This document shows positions 3,245 to 19,547 of a DNA stretch of 64,000 nucleotides, piece by piece (positions within the stretch are counted from its first letter, which is position 1; every line of letters begins with the position of its first letter). Made by a program: the position numbers and the translations under genes. The stretch is from Oscillospiraceae bacterium (GTDB taxonomy: Bacteria > Bacillota > Clostridia > Saccharofermentanales > Saccharofermentanaceae), in contig CACZML010000005.1 in assembly GCA_902782235.1 (NCBI GenBank), forward strand, positions 1,091 to 65,090, written 5' to 3'. The notes below the pieces were generated by a model. That model worked only from the letters and a program-made list of their open reading frames with translations, was not told the origin of the DNA and searched no databases.

Positions 3245-4127
3245 ATTCGCTTTTGATCCAGATTGCGGGACGGACACCAACCTCGACCATACCGCCAAAA
3301 TAATTGTAATCCCAACCGGCAAAGCCATGAACACTTACATAGCAGACGCTTCTGTTGTTCATACCGGGAGACCGGAGCCACCAATAAGAGTATTCTTTTC
3401 CGGTCAGATCTTCCGTATATCCCATTTCAATAAATCCACGGGCTTCCTCTTCCGGTATCACATAAACATAAGCATGATTTGAAACTGCATAGGGTGTCGC
3501 TTCTGCCAGTAATGCCTGAGAATAACCGGATTGCCTCTCTTCATCCCATAAATTGAAATCATAATATTTTATTACTTCTTCAGCACTTAAACAAAAAACC
3601 TTATCCTTAGTAGTTTTGCCGCCATCAACGTTATATATCGGGTTTTTCTCAGTCTTAAGCTCAGTAGTAAGTATTAATTGCTGTTCATCTTTATCGAAAG
3701 CGTTATTAAGAAATTCCTTGTTCATCCATGATCTTAACAGGCTGCTGTGCCATTTGATCTTTTCGGGAGTTCTGGCATATGGTGAAACGTCAATAAAGGA
3801 ATGGCAATCCAGAATATATCTGCTTAATAGAAGCATCTTACCGTCTTCTTTATCCAAAATATCCCATACGATAGGTTCCGGTCCGTTATCAAGATTTCCA
3901 TCCTGTTCGTAATGCCCGAAAACAACGCAATCGGAATCCAAAACAGACTCAGATGTCTCAACCGAAGTAGTTTCAGAAGAAAATTCTGTTGTAGTCTCAG
4001 AAGTTACAGATACCTCGGCAGACGTTTCAGTAACAGGTTCAGTCTGAGGTTCAGTATTTATGTTGCATGCAGCCATCAGCATAGTTGCAGTAATAACCAA
4101 TATAGTTATCGGTTTTCTCATAAACAA
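3243..4127 (-). CDS. Lipoprotein with Thr/Glu/Ser-rich linker and DUF6273-like C-terminal domain
   Basis: Lipobox-like LMAAC, TET-rich linker, FGxYEQDG...PIxW, W..S.LR.WMN..F, WWLRSPG and terminal GVRPAIW. Confidence 0.75.
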   Translation of the reverse strand: MFMRKPITILVITATMLMAACNINTEPQTEPVTETSAEVSVTSETTTEFSSETTSVETSESVLDSDCVVFGHYEQDGNLDNGPEPIVWDILDKEDGKMLLLSRYILDCHSFIDVSPYARTPEKIKWHSSLLRSWMNKEFLNNAFDKDEQQLILTTELKTEKNPIYNVDGGKTTKDKVFCLSAEEVIKYYDFNLWDEERQSGYSQALLAEATPYAVSNHAYVYVIPEEEARGFIEMGYTEDLTGKEYSYWWLRSPGMNNRSVCYVSVHGFAGWDYNYFGGMVEVGVRPAIWIKSE

Positions 4128-12346: not shown

Positions 12347-14611
12347 TTAGCCGTCCTGAGGGTCATTGTCGAACGACATCGGATACTTTGTGTGATCGAA
12401 ATCCTCAATGAGTCTTTTGAACACTCCGTTAATCGCAGATTTATTGACCGCCTTTATAACAAAACTCATTCTGTAACGGCCCCTGAGCTCGTAAATGACA
12501 CACGGCATCGGACCATATACCTCAAACTGATACCTTTTATCCTGGAAACCCAGAAAGTCGTTAAGATACTTAGCTAATTCATTGGCTCTTCTGATAAGGA
12601 GATCCTCATCGGGCAAAGACAGGACGATCTCGCCTAACGCCTTATAAGGCGGGAGTTTTAATTTCTGTCTGTACTCTATCTCCTGATCGTAGAAAGCCCT
12701 GTAGTTCTGTGTGCATGCGAATTTGAACAGGGGCTGCTCCGGCCTATAGCTCTGGATAAATACTTTTCCGGGCGTATCTCCCCTTCCCGCTCTTCCTGCT
12801 GCCTGGGTAATAAGCTGGAAAGCTCTCTCGGAAGCCTTGAAAGATGAAGACGCAAGCATAAGATCTGCGCCAAGCACGCCTACGACAGTAACATCCGGGA
12901 AATCCAGGCCCTTTGCGATCATCTGCGTACCAATAAGAATCGAGGCTTCCTTGTTTGCAAACTTCTCGATTATCTCCTTATGAGCGCCGGGCGTCATTGT
13001 GGAATCCTGGTCCATTCTCAATACCTTCTCATGTGGGAAAGTACTGTGCAGGAATTCTTCGAGCTGCTGGGTTCCAAAACCCGCCTTGGTGAAGTGGTTG
13101 CTGTTGCAGAAAGAACACCTGGCTTCATAAGAAGGGATCGTATAACCGCAGTAATGGCATATGAGGCTCTGTGTACCATTGCGCCTGTTATTATGGAGCG
13201 TCATTGCAACAGAGCAGTTCTTGCAGGTAACCGGTTCTCCGCAGTCTTCACATACGAGAGTTCTCGAAAAGCCTCTTCTGTTAAGAAGCAGTATTACCTG
13301 TTTATTCTGGGAGAAAGCAACTGACATAGCCTGTCTGAGCGGAACAGATAACATGTCGCCGCTGCCGAGCTTTATCTGTTCCTTCATATCGACAGGGATT
13401 ATCTCAGGCAATGTTGCTTCAGATCTTGCCCTGTATTTAAGTTCGAGCATCTTATAAGCTCCAGCCTGTGCAGCATAAAAGCTCTCTATAGAAGGCGTTG
13501 CCGAACCAAGAACAACACTGCAGCCTGTGATCTTTGCTCTCATCCTTGCAATATCCCTTGCAGAATATCTCGGGTGGGATTCAGCTTTATACGAACCGTC
13601 GTGCTCCTCATCAAGGATTATCAGTCTCAGATTGACTGCCGGTGCAAAAACACCGCTTCTGGGGCCTACAATTACTCTGGCTTTTCCCGTTCTTATATTG
13701 TTCCATTGTTCATATCTTTGCTTATCCGTAAGCCTGCTGTGGAGAACAGCAACACTGTCGCCTAATCTTCCCTTGATCCAGTTGATCGTCTGGGGTGTAA
13801 GTGAGATCTCAGGAACCATGTAGATAACGCTTCCGCCCTCGCTTATTACCTTCTTGGCAATATTTAGATAGACCTCTGTCTTGCCGCTTCCTGTAATACC
13901 GAACAAAAGATAGGTGTTATCCTTCTTCGAATCTATTCCTTTAAGGATCTCATCTATAGCAATCTGCTGTTCATCGCTTAAGTCGTATTCTTCTGTGAAC
14001 TTTCCTTCAGGAATCTCATCCGGAATTGCAAGCCTTGGAACTTCATTATCAGAAGATTCCTTCAATAGTCTGATAAGCCCTTTATCTTCCAGCGCCTTGA
14101 CCTGGGCAGCAGAACATGAAAGCGACGACATGAGTTCTTTTCTGGTACACTTGCCGCGCTCTAAAAGATACTCAAGTATATTGATGTGGGCGGCAGATCT
14201 TAATATCTCACTGTCCAATACGTCCCTGGCAGTCTCAGCAGATACCAGCTCAACAAATACTTCCATTGGGTTCTTATGATTGACCACACAGGAAGGAACC
14301 ATCAGTTCGACGACATCACCTTTAGTACAATTGAATCTGTCTGAGATCTTATCGATAAGGGCTATCTGGTCAGGGTTAAGAACAGGCCTTGAGGATATGA
14401 AGGAAGCGATGTCTTTTATGCTTCCCTCATCACCTTCAAATGCTTCATTAATACCGACAATGACACCGCAGCGTTCAGCGTCACCTTTTCCGAAAGGCAC
14501 ATTAACCAGTGAACCGATATTTGCATCGGCTCTTAAATCTTCAGGCACACGATATGTATAAAGATTATCGGTCTGCCTGACGGCGCCTCTCAGGATAACG
14601 CTGCAGTACAT
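12347..14611 (-). CDS. priA: Primosomal protein N' (helicase)
   Basis: GITGSGKTEVY, PEISLT, DEEH, SATPS, two CxxC pairs, GTQMIAKGLDF and QAAGRAGR. Confidence 0.96.
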   Translation of the reverse strand: MYCSVILRGAVRQTDNLYTYRVPEDLRADANIGSLVNVPFGKGDAERCGVIVGINEAFEGDEGSIKDIASFISSRPVLNPDQIALIDKISDRFNCTKGDVVELMVPSCVVNHKNPMEVFVELVSAETARDVLDSEILRSAAHINILEYLLERGKCTRKELMSSLSCSAAQVKALEDKGLIRLLKESSDNEVPRLAIPDEIPEGKFTEEYDLSDEQQIAIDEILKGIDSKKDNTYLLFGITGSGKTEVYLNIAKKVISEGGSVIYMVPEISLTPQTINWIKGRLGDSVAVLHSRLTDKQRYEQWNNIRTGKARVIVGPRSGVFAPAVNLRLIILDEEHDGSYKAESHPRYSARDIARMRAKITGCSVVLGSATPSIESFYAAQAGAYKMLELKYRARSEATLPEIIPVDMKEQIKLGSGDMLSVPLRQAMSVAFSQNKQVILLLNRRGFSRTLVCEDCGEPVTCKNCSVAMTLHNNRRNGTQSLICHYCGYTIPSYEARCSFCNSNHFTKAGFGTQQLEEFLHSTFPHEKVLRMDQDSTMTPGAHKEIIEKFANKEASILIGTQMIAKGLDFPDVTVVGVLGADLMLASSSFKASERAFQLITQAAGRAGRGDTPGKVFIQSYRPEQPLFKFACTQNYRAFYDQEIEYRQKLKLPPYKALGEIVLSLPDEDLLIRRANELAKYLNDFLGFQDKRYQFEVYGPMPCVIYELRGRYRMSFVIKAVNKSAINGVFKRLIEDFDHTKYPMSFDNDPQDG

Positions 14612-14621
14612 GTAGCTTTCC

Positions 14622-17600
14622 TCACATCAGATCGAAAAGATTTATCTGGGCACTCTCGGGAAGGTCATCAAGAATACCGCCATAAGCTAAGAGCTTCTCG
14701 GTAACTGATTGACCTACACCGGTTCTCTTCATGAAGTCATCACGGTTCTTGAAAGGACCTGCTTCCCTTGCCTTCTCGATTGCTTCACCGTTTGCAGGTG
14801 AAACGGCGCTGATCGCACAGAAAGGAGGTCTGATCTTCTTCGGACCGGACTTCTTAAACTTCGTTCCCATGGAATCCTCAAGGGTAATGGGATCAAATGT
14901 AATTCCTCTGGCGTACATTTCCTCTACAAGCTCATAGAAATAGTACTTGAGCTTAGTATTCGGATCACCCTTGGCATGCATCTCATCAGCAAGTTCTATT
15001 CTTCTCTTCTTAACCTTTTCGGGGCCGTTGCACATGTCTTCCGCATTGAAAAGACCTTCTCCTCTGTTGGTAAAGAATGAGCAATAGTATTCCTCCGGAT
15101 AGTAGACCTTAAACCAGGCAACTCTCAATGTTGAGATTGCATAAGCTGCGGCATGCGCCTTAGGGAACATGTACTTGATCTTCTGGCAGGATTCGATATA
15201 CCAGTCAGGCACGCCGCAGTCTTTCATCTCCTTAACGTAGTCGGGCCATTTCTCAACCTTGCCGGCAGCAACTTTACCTTTACGTACACCTTCCATGATG
15301 TCAAATGCATCCTTATTGGGAAGTCCCCAGTAAATAAGGCTTGTCATGATGGAGTCACGGCATCCGATAACGGAATTAAGATCACATATGCCGTCCCTGA
15401 TAAGATCCTGTGCGTTGCCGGTCCATACGTCCGTACCGTGTGAAAGTCCCATGAGCTGTACAAGATCGTAGAACCTTGTAGGCTTAGTTTCCTTGATCAT
15501 GCCGCGGGCCATGTTTGTACCAAGCTCTGAAAGACCAAGCGTTGCTGAACCTGCATCAGTTGCATCTATAGGGAATCCCAAAGCATCCGTACCCGTAAGA
15601 AGGCTCATTACCTTCTCATCAGGAATCGGAATATCAGTTATGGTAACACCCGTAATATCACTTAACATTCTCAATACCGTAGGGTCTGCGTGACCTAAGA
15701 TATCGAGCTTTAAGATGGTATCGTGCATTGCACGGAAGTCGAAGTGCGTTGTAATTATTCCGCAGTCAGTCTTATTCGCCGGGAACTGGATAGGAGTAAA
15801 TTCATAAATATCCATTTCCTTGGCGATAACGACGATGCCGCCCGGGTGCTGGGATGTCGTACGCTTAACGCCGATGATGTCCCTTGCCATGAACGCAAGA
15901 TGAGCCTGTGTAAAGGGTTCGCCCTTCTCCTCACAGATCTTGCGGCATACACCATAAGCGTTCTTATCCTGGTAAGCACCGATCGTACCTGCCTTAAATG
16001 TATGTGTACCGCCGAAAAGCACGCCTACATAAGCATGAGCTCTCGGCTGGTATTCGCCTGAGAAGTTAAGATCGATATCTGGCTGCTTATCGCCTTTGAA
16101 TCCAAGGAATGTCTCGAAAGGAATATCCTGTCCGTCAGGTATCAACTTTTCGCCGCATTCAGGGCAGTTCTTAGGAGGCAGGTCGTAACCTGAACCGTAT
16201 TTACCTGAGTTATCGAACTCAGCGTAATTACACTTAGGGCATCTGTAATGCGGAGGCAGCGGGTTAACTTCGGAAATACCGCACATCGTAGCGGCAAACG
16301 AAGAACCTACCGAACCTCTGGAACCTACGACGTAACCGTCGTTATTTGACTTCTTAACAAGTCTGTACGCGATGTAGTACATGATCGCATAACCGTTACC
16401 GATAATGGATTCAAGCTCTCTGTCGAGTCTCGCCTTTACGACTTCATTAAGAACACCCTTATGGCGGTACATGCGGTTCGCTCTTGTGTAAGCAATATCT
16501 CTTACATCGGCAGCAGCTCTAGCGATCTGCGGAGGATAGGATCCGTCAGGGAAAGGCTTGATGCCGAAATCGATCATGTCTGCGATCTTATTGGTGTTGT
16601 CAACAACGACCTCCATCGCCTTTTCTTCACCAAGATACTTGAATTCCTCGAGCATCTCATCAGTGGTTCTGAAATACAGATCGGTCTGCATCTCAGCATC
16701 GCTAAATCCCATGCTCATGAGCATATACTTACGGTAACGTCCGTCTTCCTTATTTAAGAAATGGGAGTCCGTTGTCGCACAGCACATCATACCGTGATCA
16801 TCAGCGGTCTCGACGAGCAGTTCATTGATTACCTGAATATCATATTCATTCATTGCGACCGGTCCTGTATCAGACTTCGCAGGCTCCTGTCTTGTAATGA
16901 ACATGTTGTTGCAAAGAGGTTGGATCTCAACGTAATCATAGAGATTAAGGATCTTCTGGAACGTCTCGTCAGTCTTAAGAAACTCTCTTGTGGCATTTCT
17001 GTCCTTGCCAAGTTTCTTATATGACGAAATAACATATCTGTATATCTCGCCTCGCTCGCAGGCGCCACCGACGATAATACCGGACTTGAAATACTTCAAA
17101 AGGCTCTTTGGTGTTCTGGGTCGTCTTGAATAGTAATGAATCTGTGATTCAGAAACGATATGGTAAAGGTTATACAGACCCATATTAGAACGAACAAGAT
17201 ATATTATGTGATACAAAGGTGATTCAGCAAAAGCACCGTTCTTTTTTGTTGATTTGATCCTTTCCGGTGTATAGTGACCAACTGAATAATTGATCTTGAG
17301 AGCGTCAACGGTATTGGCATCCTTAAGGCATGCTACAAGAAGCGACGCTGACTTATAGCAGGCTGTGAACATCTCATCGAATTCATCACCTGCCGTACTG
17401 TAAACGAAGTCTGCGCCCTTAGCGGAAAGCAGGTCATCTACGTTCTTATATTCACCCTTGTAATAAGTCTCAAGAATATCCTCATCAGTCGTTGCAGGCA
17501 TGAGGAACTTATGCCTGTAGTAAACGTGATCTTCAATATTGATGCCGTATCCTGCACGGCGCAGGAAAGCCAATGTCGTAAAGGCATCAGGTCCTGTAAT

Positions 17601-19547
17601 ATAGGAATCGCCTATGAATTCCAAAAGCTCACCCATCGCGAAATAAGAATCACAGGGCTCGCCTGTTCCGGGATAAATAATATCCTCAAACTCAGCATGG
17701 AAATCCGCAACATGCTCAAAGACAAGTTCTTCAGGAACAATTTCATCTGAGCCGTCAGCATATTCACCTGTTATATCAAGATCAGCGTTGATTGTCTGAC
17801 CTAAAAGTTCGTGAGGTTCCAAAGGTTTTATAGAGATATTCTCATCACTGAGACTCTCAGGGATCTCATCGGGATTCCAAAGTGACTTATCGATATCGTG
17901 AGATGCGAATTCCATTGCATCCTGGTCTGATTCGCCCTCTTCTTCAGGCTTAACAGCCTTATATCCCTTAAGTCTGAACTTGGATGCGCAAACGGACGTA
18001 AATGTATCACGAAGCGCATCGTCACCGTTGCGGTTGATAACGACAGAAACAAATGAACCTACAGCCTTTGGCTTCTCAATAAAGTTCAAAGAAGCATCGT
18101 CATCCGCATCTGATGGCTTTATCTTATCGTTCTTAACATCGTAAGGCAGGTTATAGAAAACAGTCGGGCCGTCTTCAACAAGATAACCTTCACAACCAAG
18201 GATACATTTGATAGGAGCCTCTCCGGTGTCCTTACGCTTTTTATTTATACCTTTGGCAGCTTCGAAAACATGAGGGAACGCCTGAACTACGCCATGGTCA
18301 GTAACAGCGCATGCAGTATGGCCAAACTGAGCTGCTAGCTTGATAAGATCGGCAGGATCCGTTGTAGCGTCACTCTCGCTCATCTTGGTATGCACGTGAA
18401 GTTCAACTCTCTTGCGCTCTGCCTTATCCTTCCTCTTAGGAGGTTTTTCAGCGCTGAAGAATCCTGAGACTCTTAATGTCTTATCACCAGTAAATGAATC
18501 GTTCTCGACATTGCCCTGAATACCGATAAAGCCGCCTTTTCCGTATTCCTTCTGGAATCCGTCAGCTTCTTCGGGTTTTAAAAATGCAATACATGAAATA
18601 CCGTCAGTATCGTCAAGACACATGAACTTAACGATTACGCTCTTACCTGTTTTCGCAAGCTTAAAACTATCCTCATTAAATGAAATATCGCCGGCAATAT
18701 TTACATCGAAGCAGCCTACTGTGAGGTTTGCGATCTTCATGAATGTAGCCTGCTTCTTTACGCGGCCATATAACTGGTTCTCAGCATTCTCCTTGGATCT
18801 GTAGAAAGATTGCTTGTCTTCCTGCTTTGCTTCTTTTCTTGCGAGCTCAGCCTTGGCTGCCCAGGAATCCTTGCCTGCAGGCTTTGCATCAGGAACCTTG
18901 GCTTCATCAGCCTTCTTTTTCTTTGTTCCCTTCTTGCCCTGTTCTTCAACGGGTTCATCTTCAGGGAATTCAAGTCTTCCTTCCTCAATAGCTTTAAGGA
19001 TGTCGTCTTCAGCCGCCACGTCGCTTCCTGCAACATCAGGATCGTTTGTAATGATCTCATATTGGAATGAGATCTGGTCTGAAACGCAGATATGAATAGC
19101 ATTATTAACAGCGGAAATGAGATCTTTCCTGTCAGATTCACTGAGCATCATTGCCCAGCCTGACGGAATCTCAATATTTACGGTGCTGAAATCCTCACCG
19201 AAATTGAGGTTAATAAAATCAACCAGATCACTAATACCACCCTCGCTGTCGCGGGCGATGTAATGATTAACAAGGCCTCTGATATGGTCGTAGAGGCTTA
19301 AGAAATTACCTGAATTAACATCCTTGAATGTGAAGTTAACTTTTGTACCGAAATCATGCTCAAGTTCTTCAACAAGACTTACCAGACTCCTGTTATCCTT
19401 AATGGTCTCAACACCTTCAAGGATAATATTGATGGAAGCTTTAGCCTTGTAAATATCGACCTTGACTACCGTAAGGTCTAAAAGATCCTGATATCTGTCA
19501 TCACCTACATTGAAAAGTTCAAGTAGTCTTACGCTTTTCTTCTCCAA
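14622..19547 (-). CDS. polC: DNA polymerase III PolC (1641 aa, longer than usual; exonuclease domain degenerate)
   Basis: OB fold, PHP RVELHVH/TDHG, RGSVGSS, Zn ribbon HYRCPKC/CPECG, catalytic PDIDLNFS and KLDILGH, YMFPKAHA. Confidence 0.97.
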   Translation of the reverse strand: MEKKSVRLLELFNVGDDRYQDLLDLTVVKVDIYKAKASINIILEGVETIKDNRSLVSLVEELEHDFGTKVNFTFKDVNSGNFLSLYDHIRGLVNHYIARDSEGGISDLVDFINLNFGEDFSTVNIEIPSGWAMMLSESDRKDLISAVNNAIHICVSDQISFQYEIITNDPDVAGSDVAAEDDILKAIEEGRLEFPEDEPVEEQGKKGTKKKKADEAKVPDAKPAGKDSWAAKAELARKEAKQEDKQSFYRSKENAENQLYGRVKKQATFMKIANLTVGCFDVNIAGDISFNEDSFKLAKTGKSVIVKFMCLDDTDGISCIAFLKPEEADGFQKEYGKGGFIGIQGNVENDSFTGDKTLRVSGFFSAEKPPKRKDKAERKRVELHVHTKMSESDATTDPADLIKLAAQFGHTACAVTDHGVVQAFPHVFEAAKGINKKRKDTGEAPIKCILGCEGYLVEDGPTVFYNLPYDVKNDKIKPSDADDDASLNFIEKPKAVGSFVSVVINRNGDDALRDTFTSVCASKFRLKGYKAVKPEEEGESDQDAMEFASHDIDKSLWNPDEIPESLSDENISIKPLEPHELLGQTINADLDITGEYADGSDEIVPEELVFEHVADFHAEFEDIIYPGTGEPCDSYFAMGELLEFIGDSYITGPDAFTTLAFLRRAGYGINIEDHVYYRHKFLMPATTDEDILETYYKGEYKNVDDLLSAKGADFVYSTAGDEFDEMFTACYKSASLLVACLKDANTVDALKINYSVGHYTPERIKSTKKNGAFAESPLYHIIYLVRSNMGLYNLYHIVSESQIHYYSRRPRTPKSLLKYFKSGIIVGGACERGEIYRYVISSYKKLGKDRNATREFLKTDETFQKILNLYDYVEIQPLCNNMFITRQEPAKSDTGPVAMNEYDIQVINELLVETADDHGMMCCATTDSHFLNKEDGRYRKYMLMSMGFSDAEMQTDLYFRTTDEMLEEFKYLGEEKAMEVVVDNTNKIADMIDFGIKPFPDGSYPPQIARAAADVRDIAYTRANRMYRHKGVLNEVVKARLDRELESIIGNGYAIMYYIAYRLVKKSNNDGYVVGSRGSVGSSFAATMCGISEVNPLPPHYRCPKCNYAEFDNSGKYGSGYDLPPKNCPECGEKLIPDGQDIPFETFLGFKGDKQPDIDLNFSGEYQPRAHAYVGVLFGGTHTFKAGTIGAYQDKNAYGVCRKICEEKGEPFTQAHLAFMARDIIGVKRTTSQHPGGIVVIAKEMDIYEFTPIQFPANKTDCGIITTHFDFRAMHDTILKLDILGHADPTVLRMLSDITGVTITDIPIPDEKVMSLLTGTDALGFPIDATDAGSATLGLSELGTNMARGMIKETKPTRFYDLVQLMGLSHGTDVWTGNAQDLIRDGICDLNSVIGCRDSIMTSLIYWGLPNKDAFDIMEGVRKGKVAAGKVEKWPDYVKEMKDCGVPDWYIESCQKIKYMFPKAHAAAYAISTLRVAWFKVYYPEEYYCSFFTNRGEGLFNAEDMCNGPEKVKKRRIELADEMHAKGDPNTKLKYYFYELVEEMYARGITFDPITLEDSMGTKFKKSGPKKIRPPFCAISAVSPANGEAIEKAREAGPFKNRDDFMKRTGVGQSVTEKLLAYGGILDDLPESAQINLFDLM

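Follow-up and report, generated by a model that had tools for sequence, protein, structure and literature searches.

Which nuclease proofreads DNA synthesis in bacteria that possess both PolC and DnaE1, as Clostridia do? The question was raised in the polymerase surveys of 2014 and 2026, and several described systems bear on it. In the canonical PolC enzymes of Bacillus subtilis, Geobacillus kaustophilus (3F2B) and Enterococcus faecium (9QPC), an N-terminal domain and an OB domain precede a PHP domain that is split by a DnaQ-fold insert, an active DEDDh exonuclease (Exo), and the Pol3 and helix-hairpin-helix (HhH) regions follow. The PHP domain of the G. kaustophilus enzyme binds metals, is without nuclease activity and carries Asn (N743) at metal ligand 8 (PMC3666897, PMC5636811); this replacement of Asp by Asn is the only ligand difference in that inactive domain (PMC3666897). 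In Mycobacterium tuberculosis DnaE1, the PHP domain is itself a trinuclear-zinc proofreader, and mutation of ligand 3 or ligand 8 kills the exonuclease (PMC5636811). In Clostridium thermocellum PolC, the substitution C669Y, at ligand 7, raises the mutation rate at least 30-fold despite the presence of the Exo domain (bioRxiv 10.1101/2021.07.30.454558). Finally, Exo is missing from 6% of PolCs, every one of which comes from a member of Clostridia or Negativicutes that pairs PolC with DnaE1 (Timinskas et al. 2014, PMC3919608). Here we analyze the polC gene found in a 64,000-nucleotide stretch of DNA (the window) from an Oscillospiraceae bacterium (assembly GCA_902782235.1, contig CACZML010000005.1, positions 1,091 to 65,090 of the forward strand). 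The enzyme that it encodes has a retained, enlarged, folded and conserved DnaQ module in which all five catalytic residues are lost, set within a PHP domain that keeps all nine metal ligands. The parts of the gene on which the argument depends are as follows.

14622..19547, minus strand: polC, PolC-type DNA polymerase III alpha subunit, 1641 residues, the only PolC in the genome (open reading frame and translation, NF001688 and TIGR01405, PF07733 search)
18135..18425, minus strand: N-terminal part of the PHP domain, residues 375-471, ligands 1-5 (Pfam PHP match, invariant ligand columns)
17232..18134, minus strand: residues 472-772, the PHP-domain insert, a dead DnaQ-like domain or pseudo-exonuclease (no PF00929 match, alignment, hhalign, AlphaFold model)
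17628..17957, minus strand: clade-specific acidic insertion, approximately residues 531-640, between the ExoI and ExoII motifs (absent from exonuclease-active sisters)
16668..17231, minus strand: C-terminal part of the PHP domain, residues 773-960, ligands 6-9 (from residue 773 on, 9qpc and 3f2b can again be aligned; invariant ligand columns)

The gene is one long open reading frame with a TTG start, and its identity as polC is secure. The whole protein scores 1235.7 bits against the NCBIfam equivalog NF001688 (cut-off 873) and 1110.8 bits against the equivalog TIGR01405 (cut-off 1043.45). Pfam recognizes a split PHP domain (with a match at residues 382-458), DNA_pol3_alpha, the finger domain and HHH_6, and the order of parts is that of a PolC: a PHP domain split by an insert, then the Pol3 palm and fingers and the HhH region, with the polymerase catalytic aspartates intact. 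The genome from which the window comes is a metagenome-assembled genome (MAG) of 210 contigs that is 92% complete; a PF07733 search of it returned this gene and one dnaE, and nothing else. The named relatives are Saccharofermentans MAGs and the rumen isolates "Ruminococcaceae bacterium" YAD3003, KH2T8 and YRB3002. The enzyme is thus the sole, orthologous PolC replicase of a Saccharofermentans-like genus of rumen Clostridia.

The first-pass annotation of this DNA had listed seven short motifs supplying the PHP ligands H, H, D, H, E, H, C, D and H. All seven are present on the minus strand, where they supply exactly these nine residues, and the range that it gave, 16760-18400, runs from the codon of H929 to that of H384.

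18390-18401, minus strand: LHVH, residues 383-386, with H384 (codon 18396-18398) and H386 (codon 18390-18392)
18366-18380, minus strand: SESDA, residues 390-394, with D393 (codon 18369-18371)
18291-18302, minus strand: TDHG, residues 416-419, with H418 (codon 18294-18296)
18183-18197, minus strand: GCEGY, residues 451-455, with E453 (codon 18189-18191)
17202-17213, minus strand: YHII, residues 779-782, with H780 (codon 17208-17210)
17055-17066, minus strand: GACE, residues 828-831, with C830 (codon 17058-17060)
16761-16772, minus strand: TDSH, residues 926-929, with D927 (codon 16767-16769) and H929 (codon 16761-16763)

In alignments these residues fall exactly on the ligand positions of other PolCs, and the resulting set, HHDHEHCDH, fits the published signature of "active" PHP exonucleases, HHDHEH[C/H]DH (PMC12926913), including Asp at ligands 3 and 8. 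The nine ligand columns are invariant across 12 diverse members of the clade. Moreover, a search of 5.8 billion proteins yielded 119 full-length clade members that are 43-100% identical to the query, and every one of them reads HHDHEHCDH. In the same 119 proteins the five DEDDh positions vary freely, which argues that the conservation of the PHP ligands is real and not a product of chance.

The DnaQ-like domain presents the opposite picture. A Pfam scan of the protein gave no match to PF00929 (RNase_T), and the catalytic positions of the DEDDh exonuclease read V503, N505, T658, F723 and A729, so that the earlier description of this domain as dead is borne out. The Asp and Glu of ExoI are replaced by Val503 and Asn505 and the Asp of ExoII by Thr658; the His and Asp of ExoIII correspond to Phe723 and Ala729, two positions that are less certainly aligned. 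Not one of the 119 full-length clade members has D-E-D at the first three catalytic positions, and the integral 3'-5' exonuclease of the PolC family is thus predicted to be inactive here.

Is the insert nevertheless a DnaQ domain? When E. faecium PolC (9qpc) is compared with the enzyme by phmmer, residues 311-471 and 773-1641 are aligned and residues 472-772 are skipped, and an hhalign comparison with distant active domains returns a probability of only 30%. The relationship becomes clear only because active domains from the same family could be used in the profile comparison, Pfam, phmmer and the distant profiles being insufficient: against these nearer domains, hhalign reports a probability of 99.4% (E 3e-21) over 201 columns, and the nearest exonuclease-active enzymes can be aligned residue by residue, DSFVALDVETTGLD against GSFVSVVINRNGDD and VGHNIFFDMGFIREAGFQIDIE against TGPDAFTTLAFLRRAGYGINIE. 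An AlphaFold model of residues 375-960 (predicted local distance difference test score, pLDDT, 86.4; predicted template modelling score, pTM, 0.87) has full-length E. faecium PolC (9qpc) as its best structural match in Foldseek (E 5e-27), with the Exo region covered, and it also matches the DnaQ domain 8h2f and RNase T. As judged from the profiles and the model, the insert is a true DnaQ homologue, and it is predicted to have kept the DnaQ/RNase T fold. The enzyme therefore resembles canonical PolC in domain order and in its polymerase catalytic motif, and it differs in that all five DEDDh residues are replaced and that the insert is some 75-110 residues longer.

The domain carries an acidic insertion at approximately residues 531-640, which contributes about 75 residues more than the sister enzymes have (about 75-110 residues in all) and contains an invariant EGE (537-539) and an invariant D-I-D (551-553). 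Alignments revealed no such insertion in the exonuclease-active sisters (loci L008-L011) or in the lineages of the family in which DnaQ was inactivated independently. Among 109 full-length clade proteins, 18 of its 110 columns are at least 95% conserved, and the AlphaFold model shows it as partly structured (block pLDDT 57-81). Across the same proteins, the level of conservation in the dead domain and the insertion is close to that in the OB domain, with a mean pairwise identity of 0.54-0.62 and with 13-19% of columns at least 95% conserved. We considered whether the insert could be a remnant in decay or an artefact of assembly; that it is conserved in 109 full-length proteins and has a confidently modelled fold argues against both, and marks it as a maintained module rather than debris. 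What is new here is this retained, enlarged and dead DnaQ domain in a PolC; the complete PHP set of clostridial PolC is known. Our literature search on PolC with an inactive exonuclease together with PHP found no paper.

Loss of DnaQ function is not confined to this clade. Dead DnaQ domains also occur in three other genera of the family (g4, g7 and g8) and in one member, G031, of an otherwise exonuclease-active genus; the genomes concerned are G004, G007, G008, G012, G013, G017, G021, G025, G029 and G031 (loci L135-L144). The PolCs of these genomes are without the large acidic insertion, and all of them keep HHDHEHCDH. An IQ-TREE tree of the family requires at least four changes of DnaQ state, with a Mageeibacillus-labelled MAG (L014) as one of four inactivated lineages. 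DnaQ catalysis has been lost at least four times within one family, with an intact PHP site every time. Similarly, ten clostridial PolCs of 1240-1300 residues are without the exonuclease insert altogether (loci L027, L034, L038, L041, L042, L044, L051, L057, L083 and L084). They come from Acutalibacteraceae/Ruminococcus, from Clostridiaceae MAGs and from two Lachnospiraceae lines, represent at least four independent deletions, and all read HHDHEHCDH, in agreement with the published Exo-less PolC (PMC3919608). Like those enzymes, the PolC studied here has no working DnaQ domain, conserves its own PHP site and is accompanied by a DnaE1 with an intact PHP domain, and a hidden Markov model scan would likewise score it as lacking Exo. 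It is nonetheless not an Exo-less PolC: its 301-residue insert is present, and instead of having been deleted it is folded, conserved and enlarged.

One of the ten insert-less sequences, L051, lies on a contig labelled Ignavibacteriales (JBLNBO010000054.1), and its clostridial-type PolC nests among Clostridia in the tree. The label is probably an error of MAG binning or labelling.

Was the complete PHP site acquired to offset the dead exonuclease? The first-pass annotation had suggested that proofreading might have moved to the PHP domain, and had foreseen that an equally complete PHP domain in exonuclease-active relatives would weaken the link. This is what the comparison revealed. Among 80 species-representative PolC loci, 56 PolCs whose DEDDh set is intact have this very HHDHEHCDH, and 20 further exonuclease-active PolCs from the GTDB family of the window's genome, its sister lineage included, all combine HHDHEHCDH with DEDHD. 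Trees from which the exonuclease columns had been excluded recover the main dead clade as monophyletic (support 100), with exonuclease-active enzymes as its sister group (support 99), and its PolC branch lengths are ordinary. Since the same set is found in exonuclease-active relatives up to the sister lineage, the complete PHP site is ancestral to clostridial PolC rather than compensatory; it was neither gained nor restored in this lineage. By itself it is ordinary for Clostridia, and it has already been described in clostridial PolC (PMC3919608, PMC12926913).

We therefore consider it extremely improbable that PHP proofreading was gained or re-activated in this clade to offset the dead DEDDh domain. 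The observation that speaks for such a gain is the Asp at ligand 8, where Bacilli PolCs have Asn. The first-pass annotation had mentioned this Asn, and for Bacilli it is correct: it is found in G. kaustophilus (N743, PMC3666897), in E. faecium, whose PolC reads GNVHY at this position in our alignment, and, among the 80 loci, in Macrococcus, Jeotgalibacillus and Bacillus only. Brevibacillus has Asp, however, and so does every exonuclease-active clostridial PolC examined, the sister lineage among them, each with the whole nine-ligand set; nor was any shift of constraint seen in the PHP domain. We accordingly rejected the idea that a change between Asn and Asp at ligand 8 is specific to this clade.

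A different possibility is that a separate DEDDh exonuclease acts in trans, as the epsilon subunit does in Escherichia coli. We scanned the window's own genome and 81 genomes of the family for RNase_T domains (PF00929). The genome has a single RNase_T-domain protein, of 352 residues (G000 contig C1, 48152-48673 region; locus L001, 1069-2127, minus strand), whose N-terminal part is an RNase_T domain of the DEDDh type, in which we assigned by eye a D-x-E motif (FDMEW) and an H-x4-D motif (HSATAD), and whose C-terminal part is Cys-rich (CPLCNSK...ECREHG). Moreover, about 40% of the genus genomes encode a strong stand-alone RNase_T protein of about 225 residues, and in mycobacteria a non-canonical DnaQ serves as the second proofreader (PMC11348249). 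Neither protein behaves as a replacement would, however. Homologues of the 352-residue protein, about 340 residues long, are found in almost every one of the 81 family genomes, be the PolC exonuclease active or dead, and so do not track its loss. The type of about 225 residues is no more common among genomes of the dead genus (about 15 of 38) than among those of an exonuclease-active genus (about 15 of 28), and the scan did not find it in the window's own genome or in near-complete genomes of the genus. Furthermore, in G012, a 95% complete genome with a dead PolC domain, there was no RNase_T match whatsoever; G031 has a strong stand-alone RNase_T protein of 323 residues. Thus the separate DnaQ that the first-pass annotation had named as the case that would overturn its proposal is not consistently present in the family, and we regard proofreading in trans by a DEDDh exonuclease as decidedly improbable. 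A compensating stand-alone DnaQ was for the same reason set aside, no exonuclease in the genomes scanned tracking the dead PolC domain.

Clostridia for the most part have three "active" proofreaders according to the 2026 survey (PMC12926913). It could be that DnaE1 proofreads or carries out most replication, that PolC mismatches are removed in trans by the DnaE1 PHP domain, and that the PHP metal site of PolC is kept for folding, for stability or for a chemistry such as that of a pyrophosphatase. The full HHDHEHCDH set is present in DnaE1 from 30 of 30 genus genomes; DnaE1 has been considered the possible main replicase in Clostridia with both PolC and DnaE1, the home of all Exo-less PolCs (Timinskas et al., PMC3919608); proofreading in trans between PolC and DnaE3 has been reported for B. 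subtilis, according to a citation in PMC12926913; and proposals for what PHP domains do include a structural role (PMC3666897) and that of a pyrophosphatase (PMC4822814). We nevertheless consider this account unlikely, in part because of the polymerase itself, which has the following features.

16062..16082, minus strand: polymerase catalytic motif PDIDLNF, with D1157 and D1159 (same as the E. faecium PolC motif in the alignment)
15690-15710, minus strand: third polymerase Asp, D1282, in KLDILGH (invariant in the clade)
14625..14648, minus strand: C-terminal QINLFDLM (read from the sequence; Q1634 and F1638 invariant in the clade)

The C-terminal QINLFDLM we take, from general knowledge of PolC, to be a putative beta-clamp-binding motif. 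D1157, D1159 and D1282 are invariant in the alignment of 12 clade sequences, and D1157 and D1159 lie in the motif that contains the catalytic residues D972/D974 of E. faecium PolC (PMC12592400). The polymerase active site is thus intact, and together with the clamp-type motif and the strongly conserved polymerase core (0.82 pairwise identity) it indicates that this PolC is an active replicase. In addition, the change at ligand 7 in C. thermocellum has its mutator effect in a cell that also has DnaE1 (bioRxiv 10.1101/2021.07.30.454558), and the dnaE frame of the window's own genome is interrupted near its 3' end, though probably by an assembly error.

This interruption takes the form of an apparent frameshift (G000 contig C12, approximately 3467-3497; locus L149). 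The main frame ends at 3497 after 1052 residues, and the last 139 or so residues are encoded in another plus-strand frame, 3467-3883; this tail matches the C-terminus of an intact DnaE, 1226 residues long, from the relative G099, whose PHP region shares 98% identity. The probable cause is an error of assembly or an indel error in the MAG, although the lesion could be real.

It might also be supposed that PolC products are not proofread at all, that nucleotide selectivity and mismatch repair suffice, and that the PHP domain is conserved for structure only. MutS homologues are present, no greater constraint is seen on the PHP domain where DnaQ function has been lost, and the G. kaustophilus PolC is a precedent for a PHP domain that is almost intact and binds metals, yet is inactive. 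On the other side, the DnaQ-dead state is old and stable over the whole genus and beyond (at least 109 full-length proteins, 43-100% identity), with the ordinary branch lengths noted above; the repeated losses are confined to enzymes whose PHP domain is complete and has Asp at ligand 8; and in C. thermocellum, losing PHP ligand 7 is strongly mutagenic. Replication without proofreading is, in our judgment, highly doubtful.

We favor, as somewhat better than an even prospect, proofreading by PHP domains, whether by that of PolC in cis, by that of DnaE1 in trans, or by both. With a complete and conserved PHP site that has Asp at ligand 8, a dead DnaQ domain and no consistently present separate DnaQ, a PHP nuclease is the best remaining candidate. 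The likeness to the PHP exonucleases of M. tuberculosis DnaE1 and Thermus Pol III alpha (PMC5636811) is close in two respects: the nine-ligand signature is shared, including the Asp residues at ligands 3 and 8 that are essential in M. tuberculosis, and a PHP domain is the proposed proofreader of a replicase without a working DEDDh partner, although the activity of the present enzyme is a prediction from its sequence. It is distinct in being of the PolC type, and in having a dead DnaQ domain in the loop that lines the primer groove. For clostridial PolC, C669Y constitutes the only in vivo hint of a PHP role in fidelity. The residue concerned corresponds to C830 here, and the ligand matters for fidelity in C. 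thermocellum; that enzyme keeps its Exo domain, however, and PHP and DnaQ effects are inseparable in it, whereas the clade described here offers a naturally DnaQ-dead background.

Several observations weigh against this preference for the PHP nuclease. First, ligand conservation is equally strict in exonuclease-active PolCs, so that conservation alone is no proof of proofreading and could reflect folding, stability or another activity. Second, dividing PHP divergence by that of the polymerase core gives 1.5-1.9 in the dead clade and 1.4-1.66 in active PolCs; the measure is coarse, and its within-group pairs are not independent. We had considered a tightened selective constraint on the PHP domain after DnaQ loss, and rejected it, the domain being slightly looser in the dead clade. 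Third, activity probably also requires residues other than the nine ligands (Barros et al., PMC3666897). Fourth, the mutator effect of C669Y could stem from disturbance of the inserted DnaQ domain. Finally, since DnaE1 has the same intact site, the PolC PHP domain is not the sole candidate, and action in cis and in trans cannot be told apart.

How might such a state have arisen? We propose that Clostridia with both PolC and DnaE1 already had redundant proofreaders, namely the PolC PHP domain, the PolC DnaQ domain and the DnaE1 PHP domain, and that it was most plausibly this redundancy that allowed DnaQ catalysis to lapse on repeated occasions. On PolC products, mismatched 3' ends would now most likely be removed by a Zn/Mn-dependent PHP 3'-5' exonuclease, with PolC's own PHP domain acting in cis and that of DnaE1 possibly helping in trans. 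Proofreading would not then have "moved" to a specially complete PHP domain, since the complete site was already there in both PolC and DnaE1. Of the original proposal, the complete and conserved PHP site, the dead DnaQ domain and the want of a consistent separate DnaQ stand; the idea of a transfer is countered by the same ligand set in exonuclease-active relatives and by the absence of tighter constraint.

The position of the insert suggests why an inactive domain should persist. The DnaQ domain of PolC is inserted in a PHP loop that, in M. tuberculosis DnaE1, lines the primer groove beside the PHP pocket (PMC5636811). The dead DnaQ shell is probably kept because it is seated in this loop, and it may serve as a structural or DNA-handling wall. 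A bolder picture, which we offer tentatively and hold to be possible but short of an even prospect, is that the PolC of this abundant rumen and gut lineage of Clostridia would proofread only through a trinuclear-metal PHP domain, as the first PolC-type enzyme of this kind and a natural return to the ancestral bacterial proofreader, and that the DnaQ domain, dead and enlarged by a conserved acidic insertion, would have found a new use as a non-catalytic guide or wedge that directs the frayed primer end into the adjacent PHP pocket. The PolCs of this clade are natural DnaQ-null enzymes, free of the confounding DnaQ activity of the C. thermocellum and Bacillus enzymes, and they provide a clean natural system in which to ask whether the PHP domain of a PolC is a real exonuclease. 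The answer bears on PolC-targeted antibiotics and on the mutation-rate biology of rumen and gut Firmicutes.

Finally, we note the setting of the gene, which lies in the order rseP, ispG, polC, priA. The TTG start of polC overlaps the end of the upstream ispG (GcpE) by 29 nucleotides (window 19519-19547), and priA (12347-14611) follows downstream after a gap of 10 nucleotides. The ispG-polC-priA arrangement looks like a tight operon.

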